A stretch of DNA of 64,000 nt from an uncultured candidate division Zixibacteria bacterium (GTDB taxonomy: Bacteria > Zixibacteria > MSB-5A5 > RBG-16-43-9), in the NCBI GenBank assembly GCA_963713865.1, contig OY970208.1:1408001-1472000 (forward strand), written 5' to 3'. Below, one piece after another: positions 641 to 60,096 of this stretch (the stretch's first letter is position 1; each line of letters opens with the position of its first letter). Made by a program: the position numbers and the translations under genes. The notes beneath the pieces were generated by a model, which was not told the origin of the DNA, made no database searches, and saw only the letters and a program-made list of their open reading frames with translations.

Positions 641-795
641 TTCATAGCGCCCGATCTTTGTGTCGGGCGTAATCGTTTTGTAGTGACAGAATAGTGTTAT
701 GTCTTTTATAGAGGGGAAATGTAGGAACAATTTCCAATTGGATCCATACTGTGCTTGAATTACTCCACAGGCGACCCTGAAAGGGTCGCACTTCG
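641..795. repeat. Cluster of REP-like palindromes, one with a nested 21-nt insert
   Basis: atagcgcccgatctttgtgtcgggcgt (644-670); gtaggaacaatt-[21 nt]-cttgaattactcc (721-766); gcgaccctgaaagggtcgc (771-789). Confidence 0.7.
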
Positions 796-1005
796 AAAAT
801 ACTGTGAACGCTGGGATTCCCAGCCAACAATGGGCAAGCCCACCTTTAATGATTCGCACCATTAGCATAATAATCTGGTTTAAGTAAACCTTAAAATCCT
901 AAAATATACAACGAGTTATAAATGTTCTATAATTACCACTTGACTAATTCTACATTTTGGTTAAATTAAAATCGAAAAAGAGTTTTTACTTTAATAAGGA
1001 CCAAA

Positions 1006-2625
1006 ATGAAAATAACCCGTCTCAATTTATTTTTCTTTTTTATACTTGATCTTTTCATATTTCAATTCTTAATCCTATCTGCCTTCGCAGTCATCCCCTT
1101 GGAAACTTCTCCTTCCTGGCGTTCGACTGAAACTAATGTATATTCTACAGGTGCGGTTTTTGGAGATATGGATGGGAACGGGTTTTTAGATTTAGTGGTC
1201 TCAAATGGGAACGATATGATTAAAGCTCCGAATTTCGTTTATTTCAATTATAACGGTAGATTAGATACTATTGCTGGTTGGGTCTCGGCTAATTCCGAAT
1301 TCTCCGGTCACTGTGCTTTGGGGGATATTGATAAAGATGGTTATCCGGAACTGGCAGTTTCAAACTATACTGAAAATAGCTGGGGGAAAACAGTTGTTCA
1401 GCTCTATGATAATGTCAATGGCTCTCTTTCTGTTTCACCTACCTGGTCATCTGCTGATTCGATGCATACTTTCACCTGCGCTTTCGGTGATGCGGATGGG
1501 GACGGGGATTTAGATTTAGCAGTTGCCTGTGGTGAGGCTTATAACCATTATTATGAACGTAACAGGATCTATTATAATCACAATGGAGTTTTAGAAACGA
1601 CCCCCTCCTGGATCTCCGGGGATTCTGGGTACTGTTACGACGTGGATTGGGGAGACGTGGATAATGATGGCGATCTGGATTTAGCTTTTATCTCTTCTGG
1701 AGGGCAGATAAGAGTTTATAAAAATTATAGTGATTCCATTGAAACTTTCCCCTCCTGGAAGTCAAAAGATTCAGATAACGGGAATAGTTTAGCCTGGGAC
1801 GATTTGAACAACGATGGTTATATGGATTTAGCAGTAGCTAATAATACTCAGTTGAGCGGAAAAGGTTATTTTGAAGTCTATCTGAATTATTCCGGAGTTT
1901 TAGATACACTTCCTTTCTGGACCTCATCCACCAAGGGTTATGGTTCTGCAGTTTCCTTTTGCGATGTGGATAACGATGGAGATAAAGATTTAGCTGCCGG
2001 GAGATGGTGGGGTTATTCAATGGTCTATGAAAATACAGGTGGTAATCTAACTACAACCCCTGTCTGGAGCTGTATATCTTCATATCAAAGTGTTATCGAA
2101 GAGATGGTCTGGGCAGATTTAGATGGGGATGGGTTGATAAAGATTAAAAATGAAGCTCACTCAGCAGATGGGATAAAAAAAGTTTATTATTTGAACCATT
2201 ATCCTGCTCATAAATTAGATCGGGTTATAGCAGATGAAGATACTTTGACTATAGATGACTATTGTTATAGTTTAGCCTCTGGCTGGGTCTCTTTTAAAAA
2301 CCCTCCGGTTTCTCAGGTCCTATTTGATTATAAGTTTTCTTTGAAACCGGATCTGGCTGTTAGTAACTGGGACCGGGAGAATTATTGTTTTTACAATTTG
2401 AATCAGTTATATCTAAGCGGAGATGCAAATCAGGACCAGAAGGTCTCGGTCTCAGATGTGGTATATCTGATTAATTATCTTTTAAAAGGAGGACAGGAGC
2501 CTTATTTTTTAGCCAGTGGTGATGTGACCCGCGACTGTCAAATCAACATCAATGACGTTATTTATCTGATCAATTATCTTTTCAAAGATGGACCAGCACC
2601 TTTAACCGGATGTGTAAAAGCATAA
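1006..2625 (+). CDS. Secreted FG-GAP/VCBS repeat protein with C-terminal dockerin-like domain
   Basis: Signal peptide; about seven DxDxDGxxDLAV repeats; C-terminal GDANQDQKVSVSDVVYLINYL...GDVTRDCQININDVIYLINYLF. Confidence 0.9.
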   Translation: MKITRLNLFFFFILDLFIFQFLILSAFAVIPLETSPSWRSTETNVYSTGAVFGDMDGNGFLDLVVSNGNDMIKAPNFVYFNYNGRLDTIAGWVSANSEFSGHCALGDIDKDGYPELAVSNYTENSWGKTVVQLYDNVNGSLSVSPTWSSADSMHTFTCAFGDADGDGDLDLAVACGEAYNHYYERNRIYYNHNGVLETTPSWISGDSGYCYDVDWGDVDNDGDLDLAFISSGGQIRVYKNYSDSIETFPSWKSKDSDNGNSLAWDDLNNDGYMDLAVANNTQLSGKGYFEVYLNYSGVLDTLPFWTSSTKGYGSAVSFCDVDNDGDKDLAAGRWWGYSMVYENTGGNLTTTPVWSCISSYQSVIEEMVWADLDGDGLIKIKNEAHSADGIKKVYYLNHYPAHKLDRVIADEDTLTIDDYCYSLASGWVSFKNPPVSQVLFDYKFSLKPDLAVSNWDRENYCFYNLNQLYLSGDANQDQKVSVSDVVYLINYLLKGGQEPYFLASGDVTRDCQININDVIYLINYLFKDGPAPLTGCVKA

Positions 2626-2656
2626 CATCAGATCCTATATTAGAATTATAAAATAA

Positions 2657-2722
2657 AAGGACAGCCATAGTGGCTGTCCTTACTAGATTCAATCAGGGCG
2701 AACCTGAAAGGTTCGTCCTACG
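2657..2722. repeat. Hairpin (probable terminator between convergent genes) plus REP-like palindrome
   Basis: aaggacagcca-tag-tggctgtcctt; gggcgaacctgaaaggttcgtcctacg. Confidence 0.6.
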
Positions 2723-2729
2723 AAATTAA

Positions 2730-4073
2730 TTACTTTCCGCTGACTACCATCTCAGAGAATTTTAGTGTAGGGGAGGTGATGCTTCCCCTGAAAACCAGAT
2801 CATTACCTACCATCTCTATCCCTTTTAACATATCCATAATCGTTCCAGCAATGGTTACCTGGGAGACCGGAAAAGTAAGCTCTCCATCTTCTATCCAGAG
2901 ACCTTCTGCCATCTGGGAATAATCTCCGGTGACGATATTCATTCCAAAACCAGCTAAATCGGTTACATAAAAACCCTTTTTAACACTGCGGATAATATCT
3001 TTCGGATCAGTTTTTCCGTTCTCCAGGTAGAAATTCGAAGCTGAAATTCTGGGGATGGAGTCATAACCCCGGGAAGCATTACCGGTGGAAAAGGTTTTCA
3101 TCTTTCTGGCGGAATAATTGTTATGCAGAAAAGTTTTCAGAATCCCGTTCTCGAACACTTTTTTCCTCTGGGTAGGAATTCCTTCGCCATCGAAAAGACA
3201 GGAACCCACCCCTCTGGGTAAGAGAGCATCATCCCAAACAGTCAAAAGGTCTGAGCCGATTTTTTCATTCATCTTTCCGGCCAAAAAAGTAGAATTTTTT
3301 GCGGCTAATTCTCCGTTTACCCCATAAGAAAGTCCAGCCAGAAAACCAGAAGCAGTTAACGGGTCAAAAATAATGGGCACTTTTTGAGTTTCTATCTTTT
3401 TGGAACCGAGCATCCTTAAAGCTCTTTCTGCAGATATTTTGCCAATTCTTTCAGGAGATTCTAAATCCTCTAAAAGAGATTTATAATCCCAGAAACCATT
3501 CCCTCTTTTCTCACCATCTTTTTCAGCTATGGGTGAACAGGATAAGCTGACTGATGTTCTTTGATAGCTCAAATTCACGCCAGAGGAATTAGCCAGATGA
3601 ATCTGCGTTTCATTGTCTCGGTACTCTGCACCATCGGAATTGGTTATCCTCGAATCAGTACTGAAAGCAGTATCTTCCGCCCTTCGGGCTAATTCTATCT
3701 TCATCTCAGTTGGGAAATTCTTCAACTGGCTATCGTATATTTTTAAATCGGTTTTTTCAGGGATTGGCTCTACTTTCTCAGGTAGTCCGTTAAATTCATC
3801 CTCACTTGTATTTTTAGCCAGAAAGATGGTTTTTTCGATCAGGTCATCTAAAGGTTTTAGAGTGAAATCTGAAGTATAGGAGAAGCCTAATTTTTTATTG
3901 AGGAAAATCCTTAATCCTAATCCTTTGGTACGGGTTTGTTTCAAGACCTCGATTTCTCCTTTTCTGACCCGGATTAAAAACTCTCTGCCTTCCTCCAGAT
4001 AAACCTCAGCCTGGTCAGCCCCGGTTTTGAGTGATTTTTTTATGAGTTCTGCAGGTAATTCCTTATATTCCAT
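2730..4073 (-). CDS. pmbA: PmbA/TldE family protein
   Basis: GADQAEVY N-terminus, FDGEG, TGNASR, GDYS..AEG; lacks HExxxH; directly downstream of tldD. Confidence 0.9.
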   Translation of the reverse strand: MEYKELPAELIKKSLKTGADQAEVYLEEGREFLIRVRKGEIEVLKQTRTKGLGLRIFLNKKLGFSYTSDFTLKPLDDLIEKTIFLAKNTSEDEFNGLPEKVEPIPEKTDLKIYDSQLKNFPTEMKIELARRAEDTAFSTDSRITNSDGAEYRDNETQIHLANSSGVNLSYQRTSVSLSCSPIAEKDGEKRGNGFWDYKSLLEDLESPERIGKISAERALRMLGSKKIETQKVPIIFDPLTASGFLAGLSYGVNGELAAKNSTFLAGKMNEKIGSDLLTVWDDALLPRGVGSCLFDGEGIPTQRKKVFENGILKTFLHNNYSARKMKTFSTGNASRGYDSIPRISASNFYLENGKTDPKDIIRSVKKGFYVTDLAGFGMNIVTGDYSQMAEGLWIEDGELTFPVSQVTIAGTIMDMLKGIEMVGNDLVFRGSITSPTLKFSEMVVSGK

Positions 4074-4120
4074 TTTTTCTCCTTCTACAAGGGCGTATTT
4101 TAATACACCCCTACCTGATA

Positions 4121-5659: not shown

Positions 5660-5881
5660 AAAAAATCTCCTGTATGAAAATGATGTTTAGATTGCAATTT
5701 AAGGTTTTTTCGAAAGATGTCAAGGGGAAAGAAAAACAAACGAATGACGGATAAAACGTAGGGGAAGAGCTTGTCCCCTCCAGATTTTTTGTTTTTCGTA
5801 GCACTGCCCTTAAGGAGATTTTTGTAGGGACAACCCTTGTGGTTGTCCTTTTTTCTGTCCCTACGTTTTTTGGGCTCTGAA

Positions 5882-6054
5882 AGGGACTGTTGAAAAAGTG
5901 TTTTTGGAGTGCAAAGCTTGCTTTTACGATTTTTTTTGAAATTTAGATCTCTTTAGAGTTTAACTACTTAGATTTTTGAGAAAAACAGCACCAGCCTCAA
6001 GGTCAACTTCGACAAGCTGGTGCACTCCGATTCAGGATTTTTCAACATACCCTG
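5882..6054. mobile_element. ~173-bp MITE/REPIN-like non-autonomous element within a REP cluster (5757-6069)
   Basis: Terminal inverted repeats agggactgttgaaaaa / tttttcaacataccct; internal inverted tggagtgca (5905) and gtgcactcc (6020) matching the flanks of the RAYT at 41.5 kb. Confidence 0.6.
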
Positions 6055-6155
6055 AAGGGTCGCGCTACGATAAAAAAGCAGAAAATTATTTTTATCATAA
6101 AAAAACCCCGGTCTTTCAAAAAGATCGGGGCTTAAAAAATAATTAAAAGATAAGG

Positions 6156-11977: not shown

Positions 11978-12046
11978 ATTGAAATTCACAGGGGCATCCC
12001 GTTAGGTGCTGGACAAATTGAACTTAAAGTTCTGCAGGGATATGAT

Positions 12047-13452: not shown

Positions 13453-13551
13453 TTAGTTCACCTCCTCGGGTTAAAAAGTTTTAGTGAATTTAATCTCCAG
13501 TGAAGTAGTTTGTCAAGTAAAATTAGTAAAATTTGTAAAGAATGGTTAGGG

Positions 13552-18898: not shown

Positions 18899-18918
18899 CG
18901 ATTTTCATCTAATTCATT

Positions 18919-19013
18919 TTTTCCCTCCGCTGGCATTACCCAGATCAGGTTCTTAGGGTTTTCTCTCAGCCTGTCCTCGCCCGCCTTTGAGCGGGAAAAC
19001 AAGCACCCCGGTT
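18919..19013 (-). promoter_or_regulatory. TPP (THI-box) riboswitch
   Basis: Minus strand ggggtgc...ggctgagag..aaccctaagaacctgatctgggtaatgccagcggagggaa contains the canonical TPP core motifs. Confidence 0.92.
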
Positions 19014-19101
19014 TTTAGAGAAAATATGAAAATTTATTTAGCTGTCAAGGATTAATTAATAAAAGTTCAGGGATTTAAGAGACAAGGGAAAATTAAAGAA
19101 G

Positions 19102-19664: not shown

Positions 19665-19856
19665 TTATCCGCTAAGCGGATGCGTGGGAGAGGAGAGTTT
19701 CGACTTTGGGCTTTCTGTCTCCCTCATCCAGGAGGGAAGAAAACTTTTCTTCACTCTTCGAATTCTATCCTTATCGGGTTTATTGTTTTTACCGTTGTCC
19801 GGTCCGCCTTTAGCGGGTTCGTCTTTAGATCCTCTGGTTTTCAAACACTGGTCCAT
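19665..19856 (-). CDS. Putative 63-aa hydrophilic small protein
   Basis: GGAGG SD upstream of ATG at 19856 (MDQCLKTRG...), just after the barrel gene stop. Confidence 0.4.
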   Translation of the reverse strand: MDQCLKTRGSKDEPAKGGPDNGKNNKPDKDRIRRVKKSFLPSWMRETESPKSKLSSPTHPLSG

Positions 19857-23652: not shown

Positions 23653-26600
23653 ATGGGAAGAGAGCTTTTCTTAGGAATCGATATCGGCTCAGTCTCGGTT
23701 AAGATTGTCCTTTTATCTCCGGTAGGGGCAATTTCCGAATGGATCCATACTGGACATGAATTGCTCCTACAAAGAGGGGATACTTCAAAGCAAATAATTT
23801 ATCATTCTTATACCCGTCATGAAGGACAGCCCTATAAGGTCCTTTTTGACCAGCTTCAAAAACTATTTCATAATTACGACTACAGAGAGATAAAAGGAGT
23901 TGCCACGACCGGTACAGGGGGAAAGCTTGCGGCTGAGCTCCTGGGGAGTAAGTTTGTCAACGAGGTTATCTCTCAGGTTAAAGCTACTTCTTTTCTTTGT
24001 CCTGAGGTAAGATCAATAATCGAGATGGGGGGAGAGGATTCCAAACTCCTTTTGCTCAAAGAAGATAGTAATTCCGGTGCCCTTTTATTAGATGATTTCT
24101 CTATGAATACCCTGTGTGCGGCTGGAACTGGCTCTTTTTTGGACCAGCAGGCAAAAAGGTTAAATATAAATATTGAAAATGAGTTTAGCCAGTTAGCTCT
24201 TAAATCAAAAAATCCACCCCGGATTGCTGGAAGGTGCAGTGTCTTTGCTAAATCGGATATGATTCACCTTCAGCAGATAGCTACTCCGGATTATGATATT
24301 GTGGCAGGGCTGTGTTATGCTATGGCCAGGAATTTTAAATCGAGCATTGCCCGGGGTAAAGAATTAAGAAAAAAAATATCGTTTCAGGGTGGTGTAGCAG
24401 CCAATTCAGGGATGGTTAGAGCTTTCCAGGATGTCTTTGAACTGGATGTAGATGAGTTAATCATTCCGCAGTTTCATTCAGAGATGGGCGCAATAGGTTC
24501 AGCTCTGAGCCTTTTAGAAGATGGAAGAGAAGAAGCTGATTTTAAAGGTTTAAATAGACTGAGTGAATATCTCTCCACACCCAGGAATCGTAAGGGAAAA
24601 GAGAAACTTCATTTCAACTATCCTGAAACTAAATATTACTCTCAAACTTCAGCTTTTCAAGTACCAGAGGGGAAAGATATTCCAGCTTATCTGGGGATTG
24701 ATGTGGGCTCTTTGTCCACTAATGTTGTGGTGATTGATGAAGATAACATGGTGCTCTCCAGAACGCTATCTAATGACCGAAGGGAGACCGATTGAGGCGG
24801 TAAGAAGAGGGTTAGAAGAGGTGGGGAATGAAATTGGAGATAGGGTGAAAATTTTAGGAGCAGGTACTACTGGCTCAGGCAGGTACCTGATTGGTGATTT
24901 TATAGGGGCAGACATCGTACACAACGAGATAACCGCCCAGGCAAGAGCAGCAATTGAGTTCGATCCCGAAGTAGATACCATCTTTGAGATAGGGGGACAG
25001 GATTCTAAATATATAAGCTTAGAAAACGGCATCATAGTTGATTTCGAGATGAATAAGGTCTGTGCTGCTGGAACAGGCTCCTTTTTGCAGGAACAGGCAG
25101 AAAAGTTAAATATAAAAATCGAAGAGGAGTTTGGGAAGTTAGCCCTGCAGGCCGATTATCCGGTAAACTGCGGCGAGAGATGCACGGTATTTATGGAATC
25201 AGACCTGAATGCTCATCAGCAAGCAGGCGTGAATAAAGATGATTTAGTCGCCGGGCTGGCTTATTCTATAGTCTTTAATTATCTGAATAAAGTAGTTGGG
25301 AAGAAAAGAATCGGGAATAAGATTTTCTTCCAGGGTGGGGTTGCCTGGAATGAAGGGGTGGTTTCAGCTTTCGAGAAAGTCCTGGGTAAAGAAATTGTCG
25401 TGCCACCTCATCACGATGTCACCGGGGCAATAGGGGTGGCTATCTTAGCTAAAGAAAGGAATGATACTGGAAAGACTAATTTCAAAGGGTTCGACCTTTC
25501 AACCAGAAAATATGAGATAGAGACTTTTGAATGTCAGGATTGTGCCAATCATTGCGAGATAAAAAAAGTTTCAGTGGAAAGGGAGAAACCTCTTTTTTAC
25601 GGGAGCAGGTGTGAAAAATACGATTTAGAGAAAAGAAGCTCTAAAAAATCTGATCTTCCAGATCTATTTGAGGTAAGGGATAGAATTCTTTTATCATTAC
25701 ATCAGGAGTTTACTCCTAAACTTGAGAAAAAAGGGGAAATCGGTATTCCAAGAGCTCTTTTCTTTTACGAGTATTTCCCCTTCTGGGCAACTTTTTTTGG
25801 GAACTTAGGGTATGAGGTGATCTTATCAGACAGGACTTCCAAGCGGATTATTCGTCAGGGGGTGGAAACAGTTTTAGCTGAAACCTGTTATCCAATAAAA
25901 GTTGCTTTTGGACATATTCAAAATCTTTTAGAGAAGAAAGTCGATTACATCTTTTTCCCCAGCCTGATTAACCTGAAGAAAGATGATCCAGACTCAGAGA
26001 GCTATTCCTGCCCTTATGTTCAGGCTTTTCCTTATATCCTTAAAGCTACATATGACTTTGAGCAGAAGGGGATAAAGCTTCTTTCGGCTCCGGTTCACTT
26101 CCAGAGAAGGAAAGGAGCTTTGTTAAAAGAACTGGTCGAACTATGCAAGGACTTGAAGGTCAAGAGATCATTACTTAATACAGCTTTTAATAAAGCAGAG
26201 GCTTGTCAAAATGAATTCTACAGGAGAATCCGTTCATGCGGAGAGGAGATACTGAAAGATTTGAAAGGAAGAAATACACTGGTGGTGCTGGGAAGACCTT
26301 ATAATACCTGCGATCCTCTCTTGAGCTTAGAGCTTTCTAAGAAATTAAAAGAATTAAGATGTTTAAGTCTGCCTTTAGATTTTCTTCCTTTGAAATCATC
26401 CGCATATAATTCCATCATGCAGAATATGTACTGGAAATATGGGCAGAAAATCTTAGCGGCCACAGAATTTATCAAGAAAACTCCAGGGCTTTTCCCGGTC
26501 TATGTGACCAATTTCGGATGCGGTCCTGATTCCTTTATCCTTCATTTTTTCAAATACAGTCTGGGCAAGAAACCTTTTCTTCAATTAGAATTAGATGAAC

Positions 26601-27964
26601 ATTCTGCAGATGCAGGGATCATCACCCGGTGTGAGGCTTTCTTAGATAGCCTTGGAGGTTATAAGGAAGATAGAAAGAGTCTCCCCGTACAAGCACCATA
26701 CCTGTCCCCCAATGGTCATAAAAAAGTCTTATATATACCTTATATGGCTGAGCACGCTTTTGCTATAAAAAGTGCCTTTATAGCCTGCGACATAAAAGCG
26801 GAAGTTATGCCAGAGTCGGATGAGAAGACTTTGATTTTAGGACGAAAATATACCTCTGGAAAAGAATGTTATCCCTGTATCCTGACCACAGGAGATATAG
26901 TCAAATTAGTCCAGAGTCCGGATTTCGACAGAGATAGATCAGCGATTTTTATGCCCCAGGCAGATGGTCCCTGCAGGTTCGGGCAATATCAGAATCTCCA
27001 GCGGATAATCCTGGATGAATTAGGTTATAGGGATATCCCCATTTGTTCTCCGAATTCGAAAGACTCCTATAGTCAGATTCTGAATTTAGATGACAATTTC
27101 AGACGGGTTGCCTGGAAAGGTATAGTGGTAGTTGATATTCTAAACAAACTTTTGTGGAAAACCCGTCCTTATGAGTTAAACCAGGGAGAGAGTGAAAAAA
27201 GATATGGAGAAGGACTGGAGGAAATCTGCCAGGCATTAGAAGGAAAAAAGGACTTGGAAAAGCTCTTAGAACATATCCAGAATGTTTTTTCACAGATTAA
27301 GGTAGAAAAAGATGGCAGAAAACCTTTGATCGGGGTAGTCGGGGAGATATATATCAGAACCAATCGGTTTTCCAATCACGATGTAGTAAAAAAGATAGAA
27401 GAGTTGGGAGGAGAGGTAAGGGTGGCTCCGATGGCAGAGTGGTTTTTCTATACCAACTTTATGTATAAGAAGATGAGTTTGGCTGAGAAAAGGTACGGAG
27501 AGTATCTGAAGGCAATACTCAAAGACCGGGTTCAGAAAAAAGATGAAGAGATTTTGTATGAAAAGTTAAAAATACTCTTAGAGGGAGAGCATGAGCTTCC
27601 AATAGAAAAAATCATAGAACTTGCCAGTCCTTATCTGCACTTCACCTTTGGAGGTGAAGCTATACTTTCAGTGGGGAAGTCAATAGATTTTATTAAAAAA
27701 GGATTTTGTGGGGTGGTAAACACGATGCCTTTTACCTGTATGCCGGGGACTATCGTTACAGCCATTGCCAAAATAATCCGGGAAAAATATCATAACTTCC
27801 CCTGGCTGGATATGGCCTATGAAGGATTAGAGGATTCAAATGAGTTAACCCGCCTGGAAGCATTTATGTATCAGGCAAAGGAGATGCAGAAAAAAACGTT
27901 TAATCCGCCTTTGGCGGACAAAGGTTTAAAGGTTCAAGGAGTTATAAATAAAACCTCTCCCTGA
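23653..27964 (+). pseudogene. Multidomain acyl-CoA dehydratase activase (two BcrAD/BadFG ATPase domains + DUF2229), split by a +1 frameshift near 24762
   Basis: GIDIGSVS, EMGGEDSK, CAAGTGSFLDQQA, then second GIDVGSLS; removing one A in tccagaacgc gives continuous VLSRRYLMTEGRPI; may be an assembly error. Confidence 0.8.
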
Positions 27965-38180: not shown

Positions 38181-39179
38181 ATGCAACCTAAAAAAATCAT
38201 CTTCATAATTCTGGTGTTGGGGCTTCTCCTTCTGGTGAATTATTATCTCCCCTCACGAATGAATCCTTATCTTTTTCAGATATTGATCCTCATAGGTATA
38301 AATATCATGCTGGCGGTAAGCCTGAATTTGATAAATGGTTTTACCGGACAATTCTCCATCGGACATGCTGGTTTTATGGCTATTGGTGGATATACTTCAG
38401 CTTTTCTGACCTACTATTTTGGAGCAAATTTGATCCAGAGTTTAAGCTCAATTCTTTTTTTCCCCTGGCTGGCAAAATCGATAATCTTTGTTTTCGCCTT
38501 AATCGCAGGAGGACTTTTGGCCGCCCTGGCAGGTTTGGTTGTAGGGATTCCTTCATTAAGATTAAAAGGAGATTATTTAGCTATAGCTACCTTAGGTTTT
38601 GGGGAGATCATCCGGGTTTTAATCCTGAATATAGATGCAGTTGGTGGTGCCAGAGGGTTTGCGGATATTCCGGGGTACACAAATCTTTTCTGGGTTTTAT
38701 TTTTTATGCTTCTTACTATCATAGTAGTTAGAAATCTGGTCTTTTCCACTCATGGACGGGCATTCCTTTCAGTTAGAGAAGATGAAGTGGCAGCTGAGGC
38801 TATGGGGATTAATACTACTTATTATAAAATATATGCTTTTATAATCGGTGCGTTTTTTGCCGGGATTGCTGGCGGTCTTTTCGGGCATTATCTGATGTAT
38901 CTGCATACTAACAGCTTCACCTTTATGAAATCGATAGAGGTGATTATAATGGTGGTTTTAGGCGGGATGGGCAGTATTACCGGCTCAATACTGGCAGCAA
39001 TTATTATGACCATACTACCTGAATTCTTAAGAATCGTCAAAGACTATCGGATGGTGATTTATTCCCTTACATTAATAATTCTAATGTTGACGCGACCACA
39101 GGGTATATTTGGAGTGGAAGAGTTCAGCCTAAAAATGTTGAGAAATGTGTTTGTTAGAAAAGGACAGGTGGTAAAATAA
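38181..39179 (+). CDS. livM: BCAA ABC permease LivM
   Basis: SLNLINGFTGQFSIGHAGF, LRLKGDYLAIATLGFGEI. Confidence 0.95.
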   Translation: MQPKKIIFIILVLGLLLLVNYYLPSRMNPYLFQILILIGINIMLAVSLNLINGFTGQFSIGHAGFMAIGGYTSAFLTYYFGANLIQSLSSILFFPWLAKSIIFVFALIAGGLLAALAGLVVGIPSLRLKGDYLAIATLGFGEIIRVLILNIDAVGGARGFADIPGYTNLFWVLFFMLLTIIVVRNLVFSTHGRAFLSVREDEVAAEAMGINTTYYKIYAFIIGAFFAGIAGGLFGHYLMYLHTNSFTFMKSIEVIIMVVLGGMGSITGSILAAIIMTILPEFLRIVKDYRMVIYSLTLIILMLTRPQGIFGVEEFSLKMLRNVFVRKGQVVK

Positions 39180-39180
39180 A

Positions 39181-39471
39181 GTAAGACGTTAGACGTAAGA
39201 TGTGAGAAGATTATTATAACATCCCGCTTCTGGCGGGACGAAAGAAAGTCTTCGCGGGTAAGGACACCAACGAAGAGCAAAGATTATTTTTTCGTAGTGC
39301 GACCCTTTTCCTAATTACGGATCCGTAGGACAGGGTCGCCAGGAGGAAGATAGAATGTAGGGCAAGGCTTTAGCCTTGCTAAAATAACTTTTGTGAGGAT
39401 ACCAGTGAAGAGCTGAAAAACAATATAAGCAAACCTGAAGGTCCAGAATGGATCTTGAAATTTGTCCTACG
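39181..39471. repeat. Heptamer array plus REPs carrying nested GGATC micro-inserts
   Basis: gtaagac gttagac gtaagat gtgagaa; gtagtgcgacccttt[22 nt]cagggtcgc; gtagggcaaggctttagccttgc; gcaaacctgaagg[19 nt]tttgtcctac. Confidence 0.75.
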
Positions 39472-41455: not shown

Positions 41456-42183
41456 CTGGAGTGCATCAGCTTGCTGATGCTTAAAAAGATACAAAGCAAA
41501 CTATTGCACTTCAGAAAGTAACAAATACTAACGAAGAATATCTAAAAATGAAAAGTGAATATCTTAAAAAATACAAGCATGCACCTGCTCACCTCTTTTT
41601 GGATACCTATCCCTATTTCATCACTTCAGGAATATATTTAAAGAAATATTATTTCGAAAACGATCAAGAGAAAAAAATATTGTTTGAGATAATAACGGAG
41701 ATATTACAGAAAAATGCAGTGGAACTTTTAGCTTGGGTGATATTATCAAATCATTATCATCTTCTTATAAATTTAAAAGAACCTGTTTACTTGCCAGAAA
41801 TCATAAGGAAAATACATAGTAAGAGCTCAGTAATAATAAATAGAGAAGAGAAAATAACAGATAGAAGGATCTGGCATAACTACTGGGATAGATGTATCAG
41901 AGATGAAAAAGATTATTACTCCAAATTAAATTATATCCATTATAATCCGGTTTAACATAATTATGCGAAAGACCCTTCACAATATGACTTTTCAAGTTAT
42001 AAAGTTTACTTGGAGGAATTAGGAAGCAAGCGATTGACAAAACTTGTAACTGATTATCCTGTAGAAGAACTTGGTTTTAAAGATGATTATTAGAATTGGA
42101 GTGCATCAGCTTGCTGATGCTCAAATAGACAAAAACAAGCTTTTCACTCCAGTGCAAAAAGCAAGAGCAAGCTCTTGCACTCC
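41456..42183. mobile_element. REPtron-like locus: RAYT gene flanked by GGAG-footed REP doublets
   Basis: tggagtgcatcagcttgctgatgct at 41457 and 42097, each followed by inverted ...gcacttcag / ...tcactccag / ...gcactcc. Confidence 0.8.
41548..42093 (+). pseudogene. REP-associated tyrosine (Y1/HUH) transposase with internal nonsense codon
   Basis: YFIT, AWVILSNHYHLL (HUH), W.NYWDR.IRDE, YIHYNPV then TAA (41953-41955) where K is expected; frame continues HNYAKDPSQYDFSSY to TAG at 42093. Confidence 0.85.
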
Positions 42184-42192: not shown

Positions 42193-44454
42193 ATGAACGA
42201 GATTATCGAAGCTTTAAAGAAATATAAATGGTACAGGGAACAGATCGTCCATCTTAAAGTAATACAAGCAAAAGCAGGGGAATTTGGTGAGGTTTCTCCT
42301 CCTCTATCTCCTTCTCTGCAGAACTATCTTACTTCCAAAGGGATTAAGAAATTATACTCTCATCAGTCTGAAAGTATAAAGAAAATCAGGGAAGGAATAA
42401 ATTTAATCATTACCACTGGAACTGCCTCAGGCAAAACCCTCTGTTTTAATCTTCCGATCTTGGAAAGATTAGAAAAAGATAAAGGAGCTACCGCTCTATA
42501 TCTTTATCCACTTAAAGCCCTGACTAATGACCAGTTGAAAGTGTTAAAAGAAATGGAGCGTTTTCTTGAGATCAAATTCGAATTCGAATCTGGATCCATT
42601 GGACCTGCTATCTATGACGGAGATACCCCTAAGGAGGGAAGAGCTTCTATCCGAGAAAAATCCAGGATTATCCTTTCAAATCCATATGAGCTTCATCAGG
42701 TCCTGCCCTATCATTACAAATGGGAGAACTTCTTGAAGAATCTGAAATTCGTGGTCATAGATGAGGCACACCGGTATAAAGGGATATTGGGCTCAAATTT
42801 TGCCCTTTTAATCCGCAGGTTCCTTTCAGTGTGCGAAGTTTATGGCTCATCTCCTCAATTTATTCTTTCGTCTGCTTCAATCGCTAATCCGATAGAGTTC
42901 GCAGAAAAGTTAACCTCCAAAAGTTTTGAGTTGATAGACGAAGATGGCTCACCCCGGGGAAGAAAATTTTACTTATTCTGGAACCCATCTAAATATAAAG
43001 AAAGGTCGGTTCATGTTCAGACCAAAGACCTTTTAGTTCACTCGGTGAAAAATAATCTTCAGACTTTGTGTTTTGTGGTTTCCCGAAGGCTTTCTGAGCT
43101 TATCTCTTTCTGGATAAAGAATGAAGAACCAAAACTGAGAATTTCCTCTTATCGTGCCGGATATCTCCCTTTAGAAAGAAGAGAGATCGAAAGGAAATTA
43201 AGACTGAAAGAATTGGAAGGGGTGGTCTCGACCACAGCTTTGGAATTAGGAATAGATATAGGCGGGCTGGATTGTGTTATCATCTCAGGGTATCCGGGAA
43301 CAATTGCTTCTTTTTTTCAACAGGCAGGTAGAGCCGGTAGGAAAACGCAGGATTCCTTAGTTATTTTCGTAGGGTTTGAAGATGCACTGGATCAGTATCT
43401 TTTGAAACATCCTGAAGTTTTATTGTCTGGAAATTTTGAAAATGCCGTAATCGACCTGTCCAACCCCTATATTTTGAGCGGGCATCTTTTGTGCGCTGCA
43501 TCAGAGCTACCCATAAAAAAAGATAATTATCAATCCTTAGGACCGATAACCAGAGAGATATTAGAATCTCTTCAAAAAGAAAATTTAGTCCGAGAGACTC
43601 CTGAAGGTTTTATCTATTGCGGAAAAGAAAGACCACAGCAGGTTGTCTCATTAGACAGTATCTCCAGCCAGCAGGTGAAGGTGGTCTGTGAAGACCAGAT
43701 TCTGGAGACCCTGGATTTACAAAGGGCTTATGCGGCAGCTCATACTGGTGCAGTTTTGATTCATCAAGGAGAAAGCTATATCGTGGAGGAATTGGATTTA
43801 AAGAATCTGAAAGCTAAAGTAAAGAAGGAAGAGGTGGACTATTTTACGGAGAGCATAGATATAGATGAGGTGAAGATAATCGAGGAGGAGGAAAGGAAAG
43901 TTTTCCGGGATTTCAGTTTATTTTTGGGTAAGGTAGAGGTTCAGGATAAATATATTGGATATAAGATCAAAAAATACGAGCAGGTGGTCAATTTTGTTCA
44001 ATTAGACTTACCTCTGATTATTTTCCAGACTATGGGGCTATGGTTTGATTTGCCAATTCATCTAAGAAACGAGTGTGAGTTCAGGGGTCTGGATTTTGCC
44101 GGAGGTATGCATGCGGTTGAGCATGCGATGATTTCTATCTCTCCTCTTTTGGCGATGTGCGACCGCAGGGATTTAGGTGGAGTTTCTTATCCATTTTATC
44201 CTGAAACGGGCAAGGCATTGATCTTCATCTACGATGCGTATGAGGGCGGGATAGGCATCTCAGAGAAATTGTTTGAAACCTTCAAAGCTTTAGTGCAGAT
44301 GACCCATAATCTGATCAAAGATTGCGAATGCGAGGAAGGCTGCCCGACCTGTATTTTATCTTCTAAATGCGGTAATAATAACCGCCCGATGGATAAAGAA
44401 GCAGCCCTTTATATTCTGGAGAATATGCTTAAGAACATATCGAATGTCGAATAG
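42193..44454 (+). CDS. MrfA/YprA-like DEAH-box helicase with C-terminal DUF1998 Zn domain
   Basis: TGTASGKT, YDGDTP, DEAH, ALELGIDIG, QQAGRAGR, CECEEGCPTC. Confidence 0.92.
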   Translation: MNEIIEALKKYKWYREQIVHLKVIQAKAGEFGEVSPPLSPSLQNYLTSKGIKKLYSHQSESIKKIREGINLIITTGTASGKTLCFNLPILERLEKDKGATALYLYPLKALTNDQLKVLKEMERFLEIKFEFESGSIGPAIYDGDTPKEGRASIREKSRIILSNPYELHQVLPYHYKWENFLKNLKFVVIDEAHRYKGILGSNFALLIRRFLSVCEVYGSSPQFILSSASIANPIEFAEKLTSKSFELIDEDGSPRGRKFYLFWNPSKYKERSVHVQTKDLLVHSVKNNLQTLCFVVSRRLSELISFWIKNEEPKLRISSYRAGYLPLERREIERKLRLKELEGVVSTTALELGIDIGGLDCVIISGYPGTIASFFQQAGRAGRKTQDSLVIFVGFEDALDQYLLKHPEVLLSGNFENAVIDLSNPYILSGHLLCAASELPIKKDNYQSLGPITREILESLQKENLVRETPEGFIYCGKERPQQVVSLDSISSQQVKVVCEDQILETLDLQRAYAAAHTGAVLIHQGESYIVEELDLKNLKAKVKKEEVDYFTESIDIDEVKIIEEEERKVFRDFSLFLGKVEVQDKYIGYKIKKYEQVVNFVQLDLPLIIFQTMGLWFDLPIHLRNECEFRGLDFAGGMHAVEHAMISISPLLAMCDRRDLGGVSYPFYPETGKALIFIYDAYEGGIGISEKLFETFKALVQMTHNLIKDCECEEGCPTCILSSKCGNNNRPMDKEAALYILENMLKNISNVE

Positions 44455-46129: not shown

Positions 46130-46317
46130 TTCTATGGTTTTTTGATATATTAATCGAATAGTTAAAATCAGTTTGGGGAGTTTCTCTCAATATTCCAACA
46201 AAAGACACGGGAGTATAAACCTTTCCTACGGATCCGCTTAGAGGACAGGCTTGCCAAAGTTAAAAATAAAGCTAAAGCTTTATAATAAATTATTTTCAAA
46301 ATAAAATTAAAAAACAC

Positions 46318-46346
46318 TTGACAATCTCCTGATTACTTGTTATAAA
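46318..46346 (+). promoter_or_regulatory. sigma70 promoter of riboswitch-btuB unit
   Basis: TTGACA-17 nt-TATAAA directly upstream of the riboswitch. Confidence 0.7.
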
Positions 46347-46350
46347 AGAA

Positions 46351-46497
46351 ATGAATCTGTAAGGGAAGGCGGTGAAAATCCGTCACAGCCCCGCTACTGT
46401 TAACGGCTACGAAAGCTTTTTTGAGCCACTCCCGTAGGGGAGGAAGGTAAAGCAAGTAGGTCCGAAGCCGTAAAGTCAGGAAACCTGATAGGTTCAA
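46351..46497 (+). promoter_or_regulatory. Cobalamin riboswitch
   Basis: aagggaa.gcggtgaaaatccgt, gccccgctactgt, gccact..gaagg, agtcaggaaacctg (B12 box); upstream of a TonB receptor. Confidence 0.88.
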
Positions 46498-46587
46498 ATC
46501 CCTGAGGTAGGGATAAATTATGAATCATCCCTACTTGATGAAATCAGGTTAACTCTTCGCGGGAGGAGTTTTATGGGAAGGTAATTT

Positions 46588-53399: not shown

Positions 53400-53413
53400 C
53401 TTATTCTCTCCTC

Positions 53414-53720
53414 TTAAGGTTGAGAGCAATCGGTGTAACATAAGGAAGGTGCGGAACCTCCTTTGAAAAGATAGTTGATCAGGTAAACAGTATCGGCTAC
53501 GGAAACACGCTTATCACAGTTTGCATCTGCCATACCCATAACTGGAACAGGAGGAGGACCAAATTTAAAAAGATAATTAATAAGATAGGTTATATCGTTT
53601 ACATCGATTCGACTATCGTTATTAACATCCCCGTGACTTACCGCCACCAGAGCTCTAAAAGCATTAGCCCTGCCCCAGCCGTAGAATTTATCCCAGCAAA
53701 GAGTATCTTCCAGTTCTTCC
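53414..53720 (-). pseudogene. 3' remnant of a second S8 peptidase-dockerin gene
   Basis: EDTLCWDKFYGWGRANAFRALVAVSHG + dockerin, paralogous to EDTPCFDEFYGWGRANAFKSLVAVSHG in 56012..57754; no real start. Confidence 0.8.
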
Positions 53721-53741
53721 CACCTACACGTCTGCTAAAAA

Positions 53742-55997: not shown

Positions 55998-56011
55998 CTC
56001 ATTCTCTCCTC

Positions 56012-57754: not shown

Positions 57755-57810
57755 CTTACACCCCGTTATTTTATAGATAAATATTTTTATTAGCCTCTAT
57801 TTAAAAAATA

Positions 57811-57851
57811 AAAACACCCAGCTCTCCTATTAATAACAGAAGAGCTGGGTT
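57811..57851 (-). terminator. Terminator-like hairpin in the 5' leader of the S8 operon
   Basis: Minus strand acccagctct..agagctgggt then gtttttattttt, between a TTGACA near 57979 and the ATG. Confidence 0.55.
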
Positions 57852-58218
57852 AACCATATAAACTTTCGGCAATCGCTATCTCGAGAGAGATATAGAGAAT
57901 TTCTCGAAAACATAATAGCCCTCTTATCAAAAAAGATTGATTTCCTCTTTAAATTTAAACTACTAAAATCTTGTTGTCAAGCTTTTTTGTATAAATTAAT
58001 TTTAAATAACAAATAGCAGAGATCTATCCGCTTTTTAGTAGGGCAAACCATTTCATTATGTAAATAATCATTTTATTATTCATAAACTCCAACAAAACAA
58101 AGATAGTTGATGTAATATATTTTCACAGGCTCAGGCGTCTGCCTGGGTCTTCTTGTTTTGTTGGACAGAGGAGATTTTTCTTGACAAACAGGGTTAAATT
58201 TTTTATTTAATTCAGACT

Positions 58219-58743
58219 ATGAAGATAGATTTGAGATCGCTGAGGGATGAAGTTAACTATTTAGAGCTGGAAGAATCACCATCCCCTTCAGGCGGATTGA
58301 AGCTTGAGGCCGAGGGAGCGGAGTTCTCCTGCCCGGTGAAGTTGAATTTGAAATTATTGAAATCCGGGAAGAATTATATAGGGAAAGGCGAAATCGAAAC
58401 TAAAATCAGCTTAGAATGTTCCCGTTGTCTAAAAAAATTCACTCAAATCCTTAAATCGGAAATCAGATTTCTCCTCAAAGAGGAAAAAGACCAGCTGGTA
58501 CTGGAATCAGATGATAGGGAAAATCAGGTTCAACCCGGAAGTTTTTTCAGGTTAGATGATCTGGTAAGGGAAAGTTTAATACTCGCCCTGCCTTTTAAGC
58601 CATTATGTGCTGAGGATTGTAAAGGGCTTTGTCCGGTTTGCGGTATCGATTTGAATCTGTCAACCTGTAAGTGTAAAAAGGATTTAATCGATCCCCGCTG
58701 GGAGAAGCTGAAGGATCTGAAATTGGGGGGAAAGAATAAGTAA
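58219..58743 (+). CDS. yceD: DUF177/YceD family protein
   Basis: CSRCL, P.KPLC.EDCKGLCPVCG, DPRW..L; precedes rpmF. Confidence 0.9.
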   Translation: MKIDLRSLRDEVNYLELEESPSPSGGLKLEAEGAEFSCPVKLNLKLLKSGKNYIGKGEIETKISLECSRCLKKFTQILKSEIRFLLKEEKDQLVLESDDRENQVQPGSFFRLDDLVRESLILALPFKPLCAEDCKGLCPVCGIDLNLSTCKCKKDLIDPRWEKLKDLKLGGKNK

Positions 58744-58815
58744 AAGAGTAAGAAGTAAAACATAAGATGTGAGAAGAAAGAAGAAAAATAGATAAAAGAT
58801 AATTGAGGAGAAAAA

Positions 58816-58998
58816 ATGCCACTTCCTAAAAGAAGACATTCCAAAGCCAGGGGAGCCAAGAGAAGAACCCACTGGAAACTTGATACCCCGAATGTTACCA
58901 GATGCTCTCATTGTCATCAGCCTAAACTCCCTCATCATATCTGCCCTAATTGCGGGTATTACGATGGGAAAGAGATTATAACCATTGAGGAGACCTAA
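58816..58998 (+). CDS. rpmF: 50S ribosomal protein L32
   Basis: MPLPKRRHSKAR...C..C..H.IC.NCGYY. Confidence 0.97.
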   Translation: MPLPKRRHSKARGAKRRTHWKLDTPNVTRCSHCHQPKLPHHICPNCGYYDGKEIITIEET

Positions 58999-59064
58999 AC
59001 CTTTTTAAGTAGTTCAGTCTTAAATATTGCATAAGGACTTGTCTTTAGCAGGGAGGAGTAAATT

Positions 59065-60096
59065 TTGATCCGGATTGCCTTAGATGCTATGGGTGGCGAT
59101 TATGCACCTCAGTCTATAGTCGAAGGTGCCTATTTAGCCTTTTCCGAATTTGGACCCAGAGGAAAGAAAAGCAGGGAAGATTTTCAAATCACCCTGATTG
59201 GAGAAGAGGATAAAATAAATAAGGAACTTTCCCGGCTGAATTTGCAGAACTCTTTTTTCACCATAGAAAAGGCTACAGAATATATAGGGATGGAAGAACA
59301 TCCCACTGATACGATTAAGAAAAAAAATTCATCTCTTACCGTGGGAACTAGATTACAGAAAGAGAAAAAGGTGGATGCTTTTATCTCCAGCGGGAATACA
59401 GGAGCGGTGATGGCTACCTCCCTTTTGACCTTAGGTCGATTAGAAGGGGTTAGCCGGCCAGCTATTGCTACCTGTTTGCCAACGGAGAAAGGAGTGGCGA
59501 TCATTTTGGATGTTGGGGCTAATGCTGAATGTAAAGCTATAAATCTTTATCAGTTTGGAATAATGGGGGGTATTTATGCATCCCATATTCTAAGAAAGGA
59601 ATCGCCTAAGGTTGGGCTTCTCTCTATTGGCGAGGAAAGCACCAAAGGGAATGAGTTAGTATTTGAAGCCTATAAGCTTCTGGAGAAGGGTCCGGTTAAT
59701 TTCGTGGGGAATGTAGAGGGAACCGATCTGTTGAAGGGAACCTGTGATGTGGTGGTAACAGATGGATTTGTGGGTAATATAGTTTTGAAACTCACAGAAA
59801 GTATTGACGGATTTTTAACCTCTCTGGTTCATAAAAGGGTTAAACAGAGTTTGCTTTTCAGGTTGGGTGCTTTTCTTTTAAAAATCTCCATCCGGGATTT
59901 AAGAAAGGTTTTAGATTATGCCGAGTATGGTGGGGCTCCTCTTTTAGGATTGAATGGTGTGTGTATTATCTGTCATGGCAAGTCTTCTCCCAAAGCGATC
60001 AAGAATGCCATAAAGGTTGGCATAGATATGGTTAAGGAGAAAGTAAATGAGCTAATTCAGGAGAAACTTTCTAATAATAATTTAATCAAGGGATAA
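59065..60096 (+). CDS. plsX: Phosphate acyltransferase PlsX
   Basis: IALDAMGGDYAP, SGNTGA, RPAIA, LDVGAN, DGFVGN; TTG start with SD. Confidence 0.95.
   Translation: MIRIALDAMGGDYAPQSIVEGAYLAFSEFGPRGKKSREDFQITLIGEEDKINKELSRLNLQNSFFTIEKATEYIGMEEHPTDTIKKKNSSLTVGTRLQKEKKVDAFISSGNTGAVMATSLLTLGRLEGVSRPAIATCLPTEKGVAIILDVGANAECKAINLYQFGIMGGIYASHILRKESPKVGLLSIGEESTKGNELVFEAYKLLEKGPVNFVGNVEGTDLLKGTCDVVVTDGFVGNIVLKLTESIDGFLTSLVHKRVKQSLLFRLGAFLLKISIRDLRKVLDYAEYGGAPLLGLNGVCIICHGKSSPKAIKNAIKVGIDMVKEKVNELIQEKLSNNNLIKG

Follow-up and report, generated by a model that had tools for sequence, protein, structure and literature searches.

Putative gene-less insertion elements of 21-22 nt nested in REP hairpins and reading frames of Zixibacteria

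Introduction

Among published repeats, the small dispersed repeats (SDRs) of cyanobacteria appear to be the closest analogue of the element reported here, to which they are likened by description and not by sequence. The families SDR1-8 of Nostoc punctiforme and its relatives, 21-27 nt in length, were reportedly described by Elhai et al. in 2008; their copies are said to nest within copies of SDRs and to share a secondary structure backed by compensatory changes, and an RNA-mediated spread is said to have been proposed. Elements of the IS200/IS605 type generate no target duplication, insert 3' of a short specific flank, a fixed tetra- or pentanucleotide on one side only, have an affinity for hairpin-forming DNA and show an orientation bias with respect to replication. 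In passages from two reports, SDR5 is placed between the third and fourth base of HIP1 (PMC4390886), and the small dispersed repeats of Nostoc are mentioned as well (PMC3116915). Extracts from the REP literature describe REPs and REPINs, associated with RAYT (TnpA-REP), as short palindromic dispersed repeats (PMC3333891, PMC3479197), with a conserved GTAG located 5' of the foot of an imperfect hairpin (PMC3479197). Finally, the Rickettsia palindromic elements (RPEs), as portrayed in part of PMC10969869, measure ~100-150 bp, encode a conserved peptide and lie in frame in unrelated metabolic genes, where they are translated as an extra peptide.

The window analysed here, a stretch of 64,000 nt of Zixibacteria DNA, contains copies of a TCC...GGATCC...GGA motif family which we name E and whose unit is 21-22 nt long. 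E resembles the SDRs in its size, in being dispersed, gene-less, restricted to one clade and present at high copy number (64-163 in genus g1), and in its precise nesting within other repeats (the loops of five REP families) and within E itself (in fmt); furthermore, neither has a known mobiliser. It differs from them in that it occurs in Zixibacteria, where its hosts are the loops of GTAG-type REPs, and in that it lies in frame in at least 16 ORFs. HIP1 is absent as a repeat from this genome, GCGATCGC occurring twice against 16.5 expected. Like the RPEs, E is a repeated palindrome, in frame in unrelated genes and translated as an extra peptide; unlike them, it is 21 nt long, its peptides vary with frame and strand, and it is mostly intergenic.

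E copies in the window

A first-pass annotation of the window had reported a 21-nt unit at seven sites, and the seven sequences that it quoted are all present at the positions given. Three of these sites (23734, 39309 and 46224) match the strict pattern TCC-N3-8-GGATCC-N3-8-GGA, and two (42583 and 59143) carry one mismatch and are confirmed as members by their orthologues. The remaining two, a decayed copy at 733-753 and a doubtful, at best truncated one at 39442-39460, have no match in the window census at 0-1 mismatch. The list was also incomplete, as a candidate with one mismatch at 19668-19689 had been missed. The relevant features are given below, with gap lengths in nt.

733..753, unstranded: decayed E copy ending in GTG and not GGA, in a decayed REP-B, with the same host and position as the 23734 copy (read directly)
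771..789, unstranded: empty REP-A, an unoccupied target, GCGACCCTG^AAAGGGTCGC (read directly)
19668..19689, unstranded: additional candidate E copy, gaps 7+3, core GGATGC (one-mismatch window census)
23722..23770, plus strand: composite of host REP (REP-B) and E, one long hairpin (single-stranded DNA fold of 23721-23770, -11.8 kcal/mol, z -5.77)
23734..23754, minus strand: E copy of 21 nt, gaps 4+5, strict match, in the loop of REP GTAGGGGCAATT^CATGAATTGCTCCTAC, with both REP and E in frame in the activase ORF, adding SEWIHTG
39309..39330, minus strand: intergenic E copy of 22 nt, gaps 7+3, strict match, in the loop of REP-A GCGACCCTTT^CAGGGTCGC
39442..39460, unstranded: doubtful, at best truncated E copy (TCC AGAAT GGATCT..., without the closing GGA), apparently within the 3' arm of a REP-D-like hairpin (read directly)
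41548..41955, plus strand: Y1_Tnp (RAYT/IS200-type HUH) gene (PF01797 match, 44.5 bits)
42583..42603, minus strand: E copy of 21 nt, gaps 6+3, first triplet TTC for TCC, in frame in the helicase gene, adding FESGSIG
46224..46245, plus strand: E copy of 22 nt, gaps 3+7, strict match, in a degenerate REP-D-like hairpin TATAAACCTT^CAGGCTTGCC
59143..59163, minus strand: E copy of 21 nt, gaps 6+3, core GGACCC for GGATCC, in frame in plsX, adding SEFGPRG

Five copies had been assigned to REPs, and four of these placements are clear (733, 23734, 39309 and 46224). The three coding copies (activase, helicase and PlsX) are, as proposed, exactly 21 nt long and in frame. The filled REP-A at 39309..39330 has an orthologous filled copy in a related MAG, L142 (93.8% identity over 113 nt), while the copy at 46224..46245 lies ~75 nt upstream of a cobalamin riboswitch at 46321-46506.

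Genome-wide enrichment and structure of E

The strict pattern has 68 matches in the whole 2,723,046-bp genome, against 8, 11, 8 and 8 in genomes simulated with order-1 Markov models, 4, 14, 5 and 6 at order 3, and 5, 4, 5 and 4 at order 5, a simulation which preserves hexamer counts. Copies with one mismatch, summed over 11 gap classes, number 139 against ~66 in the controls, an excess of ~73. E takes the form TCC N3 GGATCC N6/7 GGA, or has gaps of 4+5, the variable gaps thus measuring 3-4 and then 5-7 bases. When gaps of 2-9 nt are allowed, the genome yields 30 matches of 21 nt and 27 of 22 nt, so that the unit is not confined to the size originally proposed (21 nt). The word GGATCC is itself not enriched in the genome (394 occurrences against 404 expected from base composition), unlike that of a HIP1-like highly iterated palindrome, and in none of the GGATCC palindromes there do the arms exceed 10 nt. 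E also differs from a MITE, i.e. a derivative of a DDE transposon, in the lack of a target-site duplication and in having inverted ends of only 3 nt.

E approximates an inverted repeat of a 9-nt half, and GTAG (as ...GTAGGA) is present at its 3' end (GGATCC-GTAG-GA) in 31 of 48 copies. By itself, as single-stranded DNA, E does not form a stable hairpin (-0.2 to -2.6 kcal/mol, z -1.3 to +1.1), and any structure-based recognition signal would hence be weak; REP+E composites fold stably (z -4.6 and -5.8). One of two pairing schemes is matched by 45 of the 48 copies, although these copies are related by descent and their folds are weak. At one site, compensated E variants distinguish the genome under study (G000) from a relative, G007.

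Lineage-specific insertions

Alignment of coding E copies with their orthologues revealed clean lineage-specific insertions in 7 of 7 cases. The gain is 7 aa each in PlsX, the helicase, the activase, a HutH-like lyase, DapF and an aldolase, and 14 aa in Fmt because one E sits inside another, the inner copy being placed at G^GATCC of the outer. Nucleotide alignments of the coding sites show that the insertion ends exactly at TCC...GGA, and no target duplication was observed at any empty/filled pair so aligned. The coding target sites are heterogeneous (CTTT, CCGG, CCTK, ATTT and others).

The activase REP holds E in G000, has none in G001 or G003, and is occupied in G007 by a different E copy with complementary inner arms (GGAC/GTCC). 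The activase E copy is missing from one genome of the same genus, and a metagenome contig (X1) with ~97% identity to the window is 21 nt shorter within 23742-23783; the REP-encoded stretch is missing in order-level relatives and in L046/L048. The helicase insertion of 7 aa (21 nt) is present in G000 and G001, with TCC intact in the latter, as well as in contigs X1 and X7, and is missing from 18 other aligned relatives. The 21-nt plsX insertion was found in all three genus-g1 genomes and is missing from 17 other aligned relatives.

The first-pass annotation had suggested a very small mobile unit, a reading which is supported, and had proposed three checks, with the following outcomes: the motif is enriched (68 strict matches against 4-5 in order-5 simulations), PlsX, helicase and activase each carry a clean 7-aa insertion, and the comparison of filled and empty activase REPs showed no target duplication. 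From these presence/absence comparisons we infer that E has moved.

Hairpin hosts and flanks

The claim that the unit favours hairpins is upheld by the flanks. Of the 44 intergenic copies, 16 have flanks that form a stem of at least 7 bp across the junction, as do 37 of 70 copies in related MAGs, whereas only 6.3% of 3000 random intergenic sites do so. Copies favour loops in five or more REP families, the filled/empty counts for families A-E being 7/46, 6/10, 9/54, 11/113 and 1/11 genome-wide (~10% filled). Furthermore, the variable heptamer of E tracks the host REP family (0/12 versus 39/58 of GTTTC type). Both figures agree with the proposal that E hitchhikes on REPs, and amplification of REPs, or gene conversion between them, may account for many copies in place of separate insertions. 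When copies are oriented with the short gap leading, position -4 of the left flank is C in 41 of 48 and position -2 is T in 34 of 48, the right flank signal being weak; in related MAGs, 59 of 70 copies share the C at -4. Neither the direction of replication (20:23 and 4:7 on the two GC-skew arms) nor that of transcription (11:19) biases the orientation of E.

E in reading frames

Although the genome is 86% coding, 44 of 63 strict copies are intergenic and 19 lie within ORFs. Those in ORFs are 21 nt long in 16 of 19 cases, the remaining three being located within 20 codons of the ORF end, as compared with 14 of 44 intergenic copies, which mostly measure 22 nt (Fisher p 2e-4). In-frame insertions occur in at least 16 ORFs, housekeeping genes among them, and 14 of 15 host ORFs tested have Pfam domains. 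E is translated in all three frames and on either strand, and its peptides (S..GS.G,.P.DP.. and.QNGSSG.) differ accordingly. Within genes, E differs at 4 of 147 positions between G000 and G001, against 166 of 1788 in the coding flanks (p 0.004), a lower divergence which suggests constraint on genic E at the nucleotide level.

Search for a mobiliser

The statement that no known mobiliser is in view was not literally right, because the window holds the Y1_Tnp gene at 41548-41955; its flanks bear its own REPs and no E. Nothing links it to E, and it stands only for a type of enzyme that might serve as mobiliser. The genome encodes eight such Y1_Tnp (RAYT/IS200-type) genes, one of them within the window, each flanked by its own GTAG-REPs and none with E within 400 nt (0/8 in G000). 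The surroundings of 88 Y1 loci from 14 genomes, 157,352 nt in all, contain only 2 E copies. The number of Y1 genes does not follow that of E (8 genes and 13 copies in G003, 3 genes and 76 copies in G026), and no Y1 clade was found to be restricted to E-rich genomes. A search of the genome, which is 94% complete, returned no RVT_1 match that would indicate a reverse transcriptase.

E shares with the REP-RAYT system its short, palindromic, dispersed nature, the lack of target duplication and, in 31 of 48 copies, GTAG. However, REPs flank their cognate RAYT, whereas E flanks no Y1 gene (0/8; 2 copies at 88 loci); GTAG stands at the 3' end of E, faces outward and does not precede a hairpin; a REP is a stable stem-loop of ~20-40 nt, whereas E alone folds weakly; and REPs are extragenic, whereas 19 of 63 strict E copies lie in ORFs. 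E is a guest within REPs, and not a REP. With IS200/IS605 elements it has in common the absence of target duplication and hairpin affinity; the one-sided C-N-T-K flank may be a further likeness, although its coding targets vary. It differs in having no replication-strand bias, no subterminal hairpin pair and no linked tnpA.

Proposed mode of spread

The comparisons show E entering DNA as one block bounded by TCC and GGA, the target bases being neither duplicated nor lost. It prefers the tips of existing hairpins, mostly those of REPs but in one case the middle of another E, with a preferred insertion point immediately 3' of C-N-T-G/T in one of the two flanks. Within a REP, E appears to be amplified together with that REP, and the survivors in genes are those of the 21-nt form, translated as a 7-residue loop. 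We propose that insertion would be enzyme-driven, on single-stranded or extruded DNA. Judged from sequence comparison, this explanation in full, in which the motif marks a genuine family of very small insertion elements without genes, is rather probable. The most likely agent would be a transposase of the HUH type that acts on single-stranded DNA and is provided in trans, a class to which the eight Y1 genes of the genome belong, an assignment we offer tentatively; that another, as yet unnamed enzyme moves E seems somewhat doubtful.

An enzyme-free spread by templated repair is unlikely. Here, template switching from a filled hairpin, or microhomology-mediated break repair at hairpin tips, would use short CCT/AGG-type homologies near the loop and make a dedicated transposase unnecessary. 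Indeed, CCTK...MAGG adjoins the junction in many hosts, E variants go with particular host REP families, no linked enzyme or strand bias was found, and the filling of the activase REP could represent gene conversion from a filled paralogue, similar copies being present in the same REP family. Conversion should, however, bring along donor flank of varying length, whereas all seven coding copies, and those in five unrelated REP families, begin and end precisely at TCC...GGA. Moreover, the targets CATG^AATT, TCAA^TTGA and ATTT^CAAA have no homology to the usual hosts, and the flank signal is one-sided (41/48 versus a weak right flank).

An RNA route, whereby a small structured E transcript is reverse-transcribed or otherwise integrated, is quite improbable. 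Read on one strand, the longer loop is closed by A.C in 12 of 48 copies and by G.T in 1 of 48, and since A.C becomes G.T on the other strand, this would fit the folding of one particular single strand. Yet the A.C cases mostly belong to one subfamily (AAATTC) and are hence not independent, G.T pairs form in single-stranded DNA too, orientation is unbiased with transcription, and the 94%-complete genome has no RVT_1 match.

It is very improbable that E is an immobile functional site (protein-binding or GATC methylation-linked), made repeatedly by point mutation and selection in the manner of highly iterated palindromes. The constant portions of E consist of short words around a GATC core, and genic copies are more conserved than their coding flanks (4/147 versus 166/1788, p 0.004), as such a site might be; but the copies are clean 21-nt blocks missing from orthologues and not substitutions, GGATCC is not over-represented (394 versus 404), and copies are depleted from coding DNA. 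The indel data contradict this origin of the copies, while a use may possibly have been acquired after insertion. We give equally little credence to E as the excision scar of a larger transposon with TCCTACGG / CCGTAGGA ends, as its near-inverted repeat of a 9-nt half and its orphan half-sites (39 versus ~21 expected) might suggest, because the listed orphan halves are mostly decayed full copies or another GTAG-REP family, no larger element bounded by halves was seen, and elements that leave scars normally also leave target duplications, none of which are present at E sites.

Distribution among relatives

Returning to E as a gene-less insertion element, strict copies number from 3 to 163 among 31 relatives of one order, with 64-163 in genus g1, and among 251 genomes of the phylum, counts of at least 60 occur only in 7 genomes of two families. 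Such counts show a burst in E copy number in some species of one Zixibacteria order. E would rank among the smallest apparently mobile DNA elements seen.

A composite pattern in excess of chance

All seven strings reported by the first-pass annotation for E, an insertion element of the form TCC-N-GGATCC-N-GGA, are present in the window where it had placed them. Three of these sites match the strict pattern and two further ones are one-mismatch copies confirmed by orthologues, while the string at 733 is a decayed copy and that at 39442 is doubtful. One candidate lies beyond these seven:

window 19668-19689: further candidate copy of E

The genome of origin (G000) was searched as one contig of 2,723,046 bp (40.4% G+C), of which the window forms positions 1,408,001-1,472,000. 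A genome-wide search for the strict pattern, TCC-N3-8-GGATCC-N3-8-GGA, returned 68 matches, compared with 8, 11, 8 and 8 in genomes simulated by an order-1 Markov model, 4, 14, 5 and 6 at order 3, and 5, 4, 5 and 4 at order 5, where hexamer counts are kept. The enrichment of the motif, 68 against 4-5 in the order-5 simulations, is thus real, and these controls rule out a chance origin of the strict matches. GGATCC by itself occurs at the expected frequency in the genome (394 found, 404 expected), which disposes of a HIP-like enrichment of this word; the signal is therefore the composite pattern. With a single mismatch tolerated among the 12 fixed bases, 139 further matches appeared against approximately 66 in the controls (11 gap classes), and this surplus implies that the true family is about twice the strict count. 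The gap combinations 3+6/6+3 and 3+7/7+3 account for 24 copies each, 4+5/5+4 for six and 4+4 for three; no GGATCC palindrome of 28-30 nt was found in the G000 genome. The unit length of 21 nt originally assigned to E holds for 30 matches, with another 27 measuring 22 nt.

Empty and filled sites in orthologous genes

Seven E-carrying genes were compared with their orthologues in related genomes. In plsX, an exact 21-nt block (encoding SEFGPRG) is present in all three genomes of the genus and missing from 17 other aligned relatives, the nucleotide alignment showing gccttt|E|aagaaa opposite a site without interruption. The helicase gene has gained seven residues in G000 and its congener G001, which are missing from 18 other aligned relatives, and the HutH-like lyase, DapF and class II aldolase each carry seven additional residues within the genus that are missing from the tested other genera of the family. 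In Fmt the gain is 14 residues, which at the nucleotide level corresponds to one E nested centrally in a second, at G^GATCC:

G000:C1:2512143-2513117: fmt with nested E; inner copy at G^GATCC of the outer, common to three species of the genus

The activase gene is layered. The whole stretch is missing in order-level relatives, most family members possess a 28-nt GTAG-REP (a palindromic hairpin repeat) in frame, and in G000 the loop of this REP holds E. The same REP is empty in the congener G001 and in the relative G003, and in G007 it is filled by a different E copy, the inner arms of which are complementary (GGAC/GTCC); genus g3 carries another 21-nt E at a second site of this gene. Furthermore, a public metagenome contig of 19.7 kb, approximately 97% identical to the window, lacks 21 nt within 23742-23783 (the aligner split this gap into ten small gaps), and the metagenome run from which it derives does contain the helicase E.

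Each empty/filled pair differs by a block that is exactly TCC...GGA, with no target base duplicated or lost. The coding copies in PlsX, helicase and activase, read by the first-pass annotation as insertions of a small mobile unit, are indeed seven-residue insertions relative to orthologues, and the search for target duplications revealed none at any pair.

Whole-region alignment of G000 and G001 (~87% identity) leaves intergenic DNA too diverged for an indel census; within an 8-kb block of it, the activase E is the only clean 21-nt indel. Flank-BLAST of 12 copies from loci of the congeners G001 and G002 identified a syntenic place in G000 for only two, both filled. Contigs of the public runs break at the repeat cluster at ~39125-39340, so that the comparison does not reach the copy at 39309.

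Two observations concern the activase locus itself. The in-frame REP (window 23680-23790; 28 nt, translated as ..VGAIHELPL..) is found in six of eight family genomes (L041-L048), L046 and L048 being the two without it; REPs themselves can therefore be coding insertions here. The activase-dehydratase is one open frame of ~1404-1443 aa in relatives, but G000 has two ORFs in its place, 23653-24795 and 24734-27964. One base at 24762, in their overlap (24734-24795), is missing from the contigs of all three public runs; the split reflects either a frameshift specific to G000 or an error in the consensus.

Location and target preference

On a crude map in which 2332 ORFs cover 86% of the genome, intergenic DNA holds 44 of the 63 strict copies (binomial p 3e-24). 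Among the 19 copies in ORFs, 16 are 21 nt long and the remaining three lie within 20 codons of an ORF end, whereas only 14 of the 44 intergenic copies are 21 nt long and 25 are 22 nt (length versus ORF copies, Fisher p 2e-4). Such a contrast is the filter expected if both lengths insert and frameshifts are purged. Pfam domains were recognised in 14 of 15 host ORFs (e.g., L-aspartate oxidase type, RecG wedge, PfkB, DapF, Fmt and aconitase small subunit), and the ORF copies are read in all three frames and on both strands.

With E removed, the flanks pair over at least 7 bp across the junction in 16 of 44 intergenic copies, compared with 6.3% of random intergenic sites (n = 3000). Among the hosts are at least five REP families, with filled/empty (with/without E) counts of 7/46, 6/10, 9/54, 11/113 and 1/11. 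When E is read with its short gap first, the four bases of the left flank are C (41/48), C/T/A, T (34/48) and G/T, and the right flank is weakly their mirror image. Four related MAGs, with 70 copies, show the same preferences (C at -4 in 59 copies, flank stems in 37), in contrast to 12 isolated matches at chance level in other phyla (flank stems in 0/12). Coding targets are less regular (CTTT, CCGG, CCTK, ATTT and others). No signal was detected in G000 for the orientation of E relative to replication or transcription, or for its position between genes.

An Rfam scan of the window reported nothing at E, the only matches, both above the gathering score, being a cobalamin riboswitch (46321-46506, + strand) and a TPP riboswitch (18905-19020, - strand). 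The cumulative GC skew of the contig has its minimum at ~2.70 Mb and its maximum at ~1.91 Mb; this implies either very unequal replication arms (~1.9 and 0.8 Mb) or a rearranged assembly.

Structure and constraint

E can be drawn as two mini stem-loops clamped by TCC/GGA with a common GGATCC or, for the TCCTA...TAGGA variants, as one bulged hairpin, and one of these two schemes fits 45 of 48 copies. As single-stranded DNA, E alone is no stabler than shuffled sequences (z -1.3 to +1.1), whereas composites of REP and E are stable (z -4.6 and -5.8). Conservation in E lies in its words and their spacing, not in the energy of folding.

Six gene-borne E sites differ between G000 and G001 at four of 147 nt (fmt counted as 42 nt), against 166 of 1788 in their 150-nt coding flanks (p 0.004). 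Since, in addition, the E peptides are not conserved across sites, this comparison of two genomes suggests that constraint, or homogenisation, acts on the DNA itself.

Spread with REPs and distribution

In related MAGs, the copies of E within REP-A hosts all carry heptamers of the GT(T/A/C)A..A type, with the GTTTC type in 0/12, while 39 of 58 copies in other hosts carry a GTTTC-type heptamer. The variant of E thus follows its host, and many copies therefore descend from a REP that already contained E and spread together with it, in agreement with the hitch-hiking on REPs that had been proposed from the window.

Among 31 relatives, strict counts are 64 in G000, 163 and 114 in the genomes of the same genus and 3-103 within the family; in a sister family, two species have 138 and 76 and their congeners 5-26. 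When 251 genomes were drawn evenly from the phylum, only seven, all from these two families, reached counts of at least 60, and the others had at most 26. A scan for the commonest variant across 185,579 species (one genome each) gave 87 stretches; of the best 80, 68 lie in four MAGs, three labelled Zixibacteria and one Ignavibacteria, and 12 are singletons elsewhere. The Ignavibacteria-labelled MAG holds an orthologue of the window copy at 39309 (93.8% identity, 113 nt). Zero matches of this variant in viral_contigs argue against phage carriage.

Single exact copies of the commonest variant occur on short contigs of MAGs labelled Bradyrhizobium (L116) and Terriglobales (L124). These contigs may be mis-binned rather than reflect transfer, the flanks in L124 resembling a Zixibacteria host hairpin.

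Search for a mobiliser

G000 encodes eight Y1_Tnp (RAYT/IS200-type HUH) genes, a candidate mobiliser class, each with its own REPs on its flanks. One of them lies in the window:

window 41548-41955: Y1_Tnp (RAYT-like) gene; own hairpin repeats (GGAGTGCATCAGCTTGCTGATGC type) on both sides; directly upstream of the E-carrying helicase gene

E flanks none of the eight genes in G000, the number of Y1 genes does not correspond to that of E among relatives, and no Y1 clade follows E among the genomes sampled. Neither REPtron adjacency nor clade tracking, therefore, links these genes to E. A Y1 clade of the L065 type was present in four of eight E-rich and none of six E-poor genomes sampled; as the MAGs are incomplete and a subset of Y1 matches was used, no inference is drawn. 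An IS200-type tnpA (G000:C1:801427-801868), within a locally duplicated region, encodes a protein 81-87% identical to the copies in the relatives G006 and G016, compared with ~65% for PlsX at that distance, which suggests, from protein identity, recent transfer.

The fixed ends, the absence of duplication and the one-sided flank motif favour insertion by an enzyme with recognition of E and speak against DDE-type transposition. E resembles HUH single-strand transposition in these three features and in its taste for hairpin tips, but differs in showing no replication-strand bias and in flanking no Y1 gene. The REP enzyme of E. coli requires GTAG and cleaves at a short word in the flank (PMC3479197). 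An enzyme that would insert E into single-stranded DNA is the best reading, though unproven. The chief alternative to it would be templated repair at hairpin tips. A reverse-transcriptase route was discarded, G000 having no RVT_1 match, as was a model of E as the scar of a larger transposon, orphan halves being mostly decayed copies. Another GTAG-REP family in G000 (..CCTACGGAGGCTT.GCTCCTCGTAGAG..; e.g., at 827031, 2289563 and 2400660) has the 9-nt half TCCTACGGA in common with E, and this shared half is a possible hint at the origin of E.

Relation to known systems and significance

Small dispersed repeats of heterocystous cyanobacteria are reportedly 21-27 nt long, with precise nesting, and to our knowledge their mobilising mechanism has never been solved. 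Compared by description, they are the closest published match to E in size, precise nesting and the lack of a known mobiliser, but E differs in its phylum, its host repeats, its many in-frame coding insertions and its better empty-site evidence. It shares such in-frame coding insertions with the Rickettsia palindromic elements, which are ~150 bp long (PMC10969869). Identification of E as a REP-RAYT system, a MITE or an iterated palindrome was rejected, as it lacks the defining features tested. The literature searched yielded no description of E or of any Zixibacteria repeats, which is no proof of absence; as far as found there, mobile DNA of ~20 nt is barely documented, the small dispersed repeats being the only published case.

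We also entertain a wider reading, which we consider unlikely to be right as a whole: E would be the shortest of a cross-phylum set of GGATCC-centred twin stem-loop insertion elements, a set with duplication-free insertion machinery of its own, directed at hairpin tips, and landed copies would be kept by nucleotide-level selection for a use to the cell or the element, e.g., as a protein-binding or GATC-methylation-dependent site. If true, this would be a novel type of mobile DNA, much smaller than is considered workable for transposition.

The E family provides an unusually clean data set on what moves DNA of ~20 nt: its ends are exact, orthologous sites occur both empty and filled, the target motif is one-sided, copies nest in REPs as well as in E itself, reading frames filter its length, and copy number differs 50-fold between sister species. 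The mobiliser question is therefore testable by comparative genomics (burst versus non-burst genomes) and oligonucleotide assays. Annotators should bear in mind that a short in-frame 'indel' or an odd REP loop can be an insertion, and for the organisms that carry it E is a route to seven-residue loops in housekeeping enzymes (PlsX, DapF, Fmt, HutH and others).
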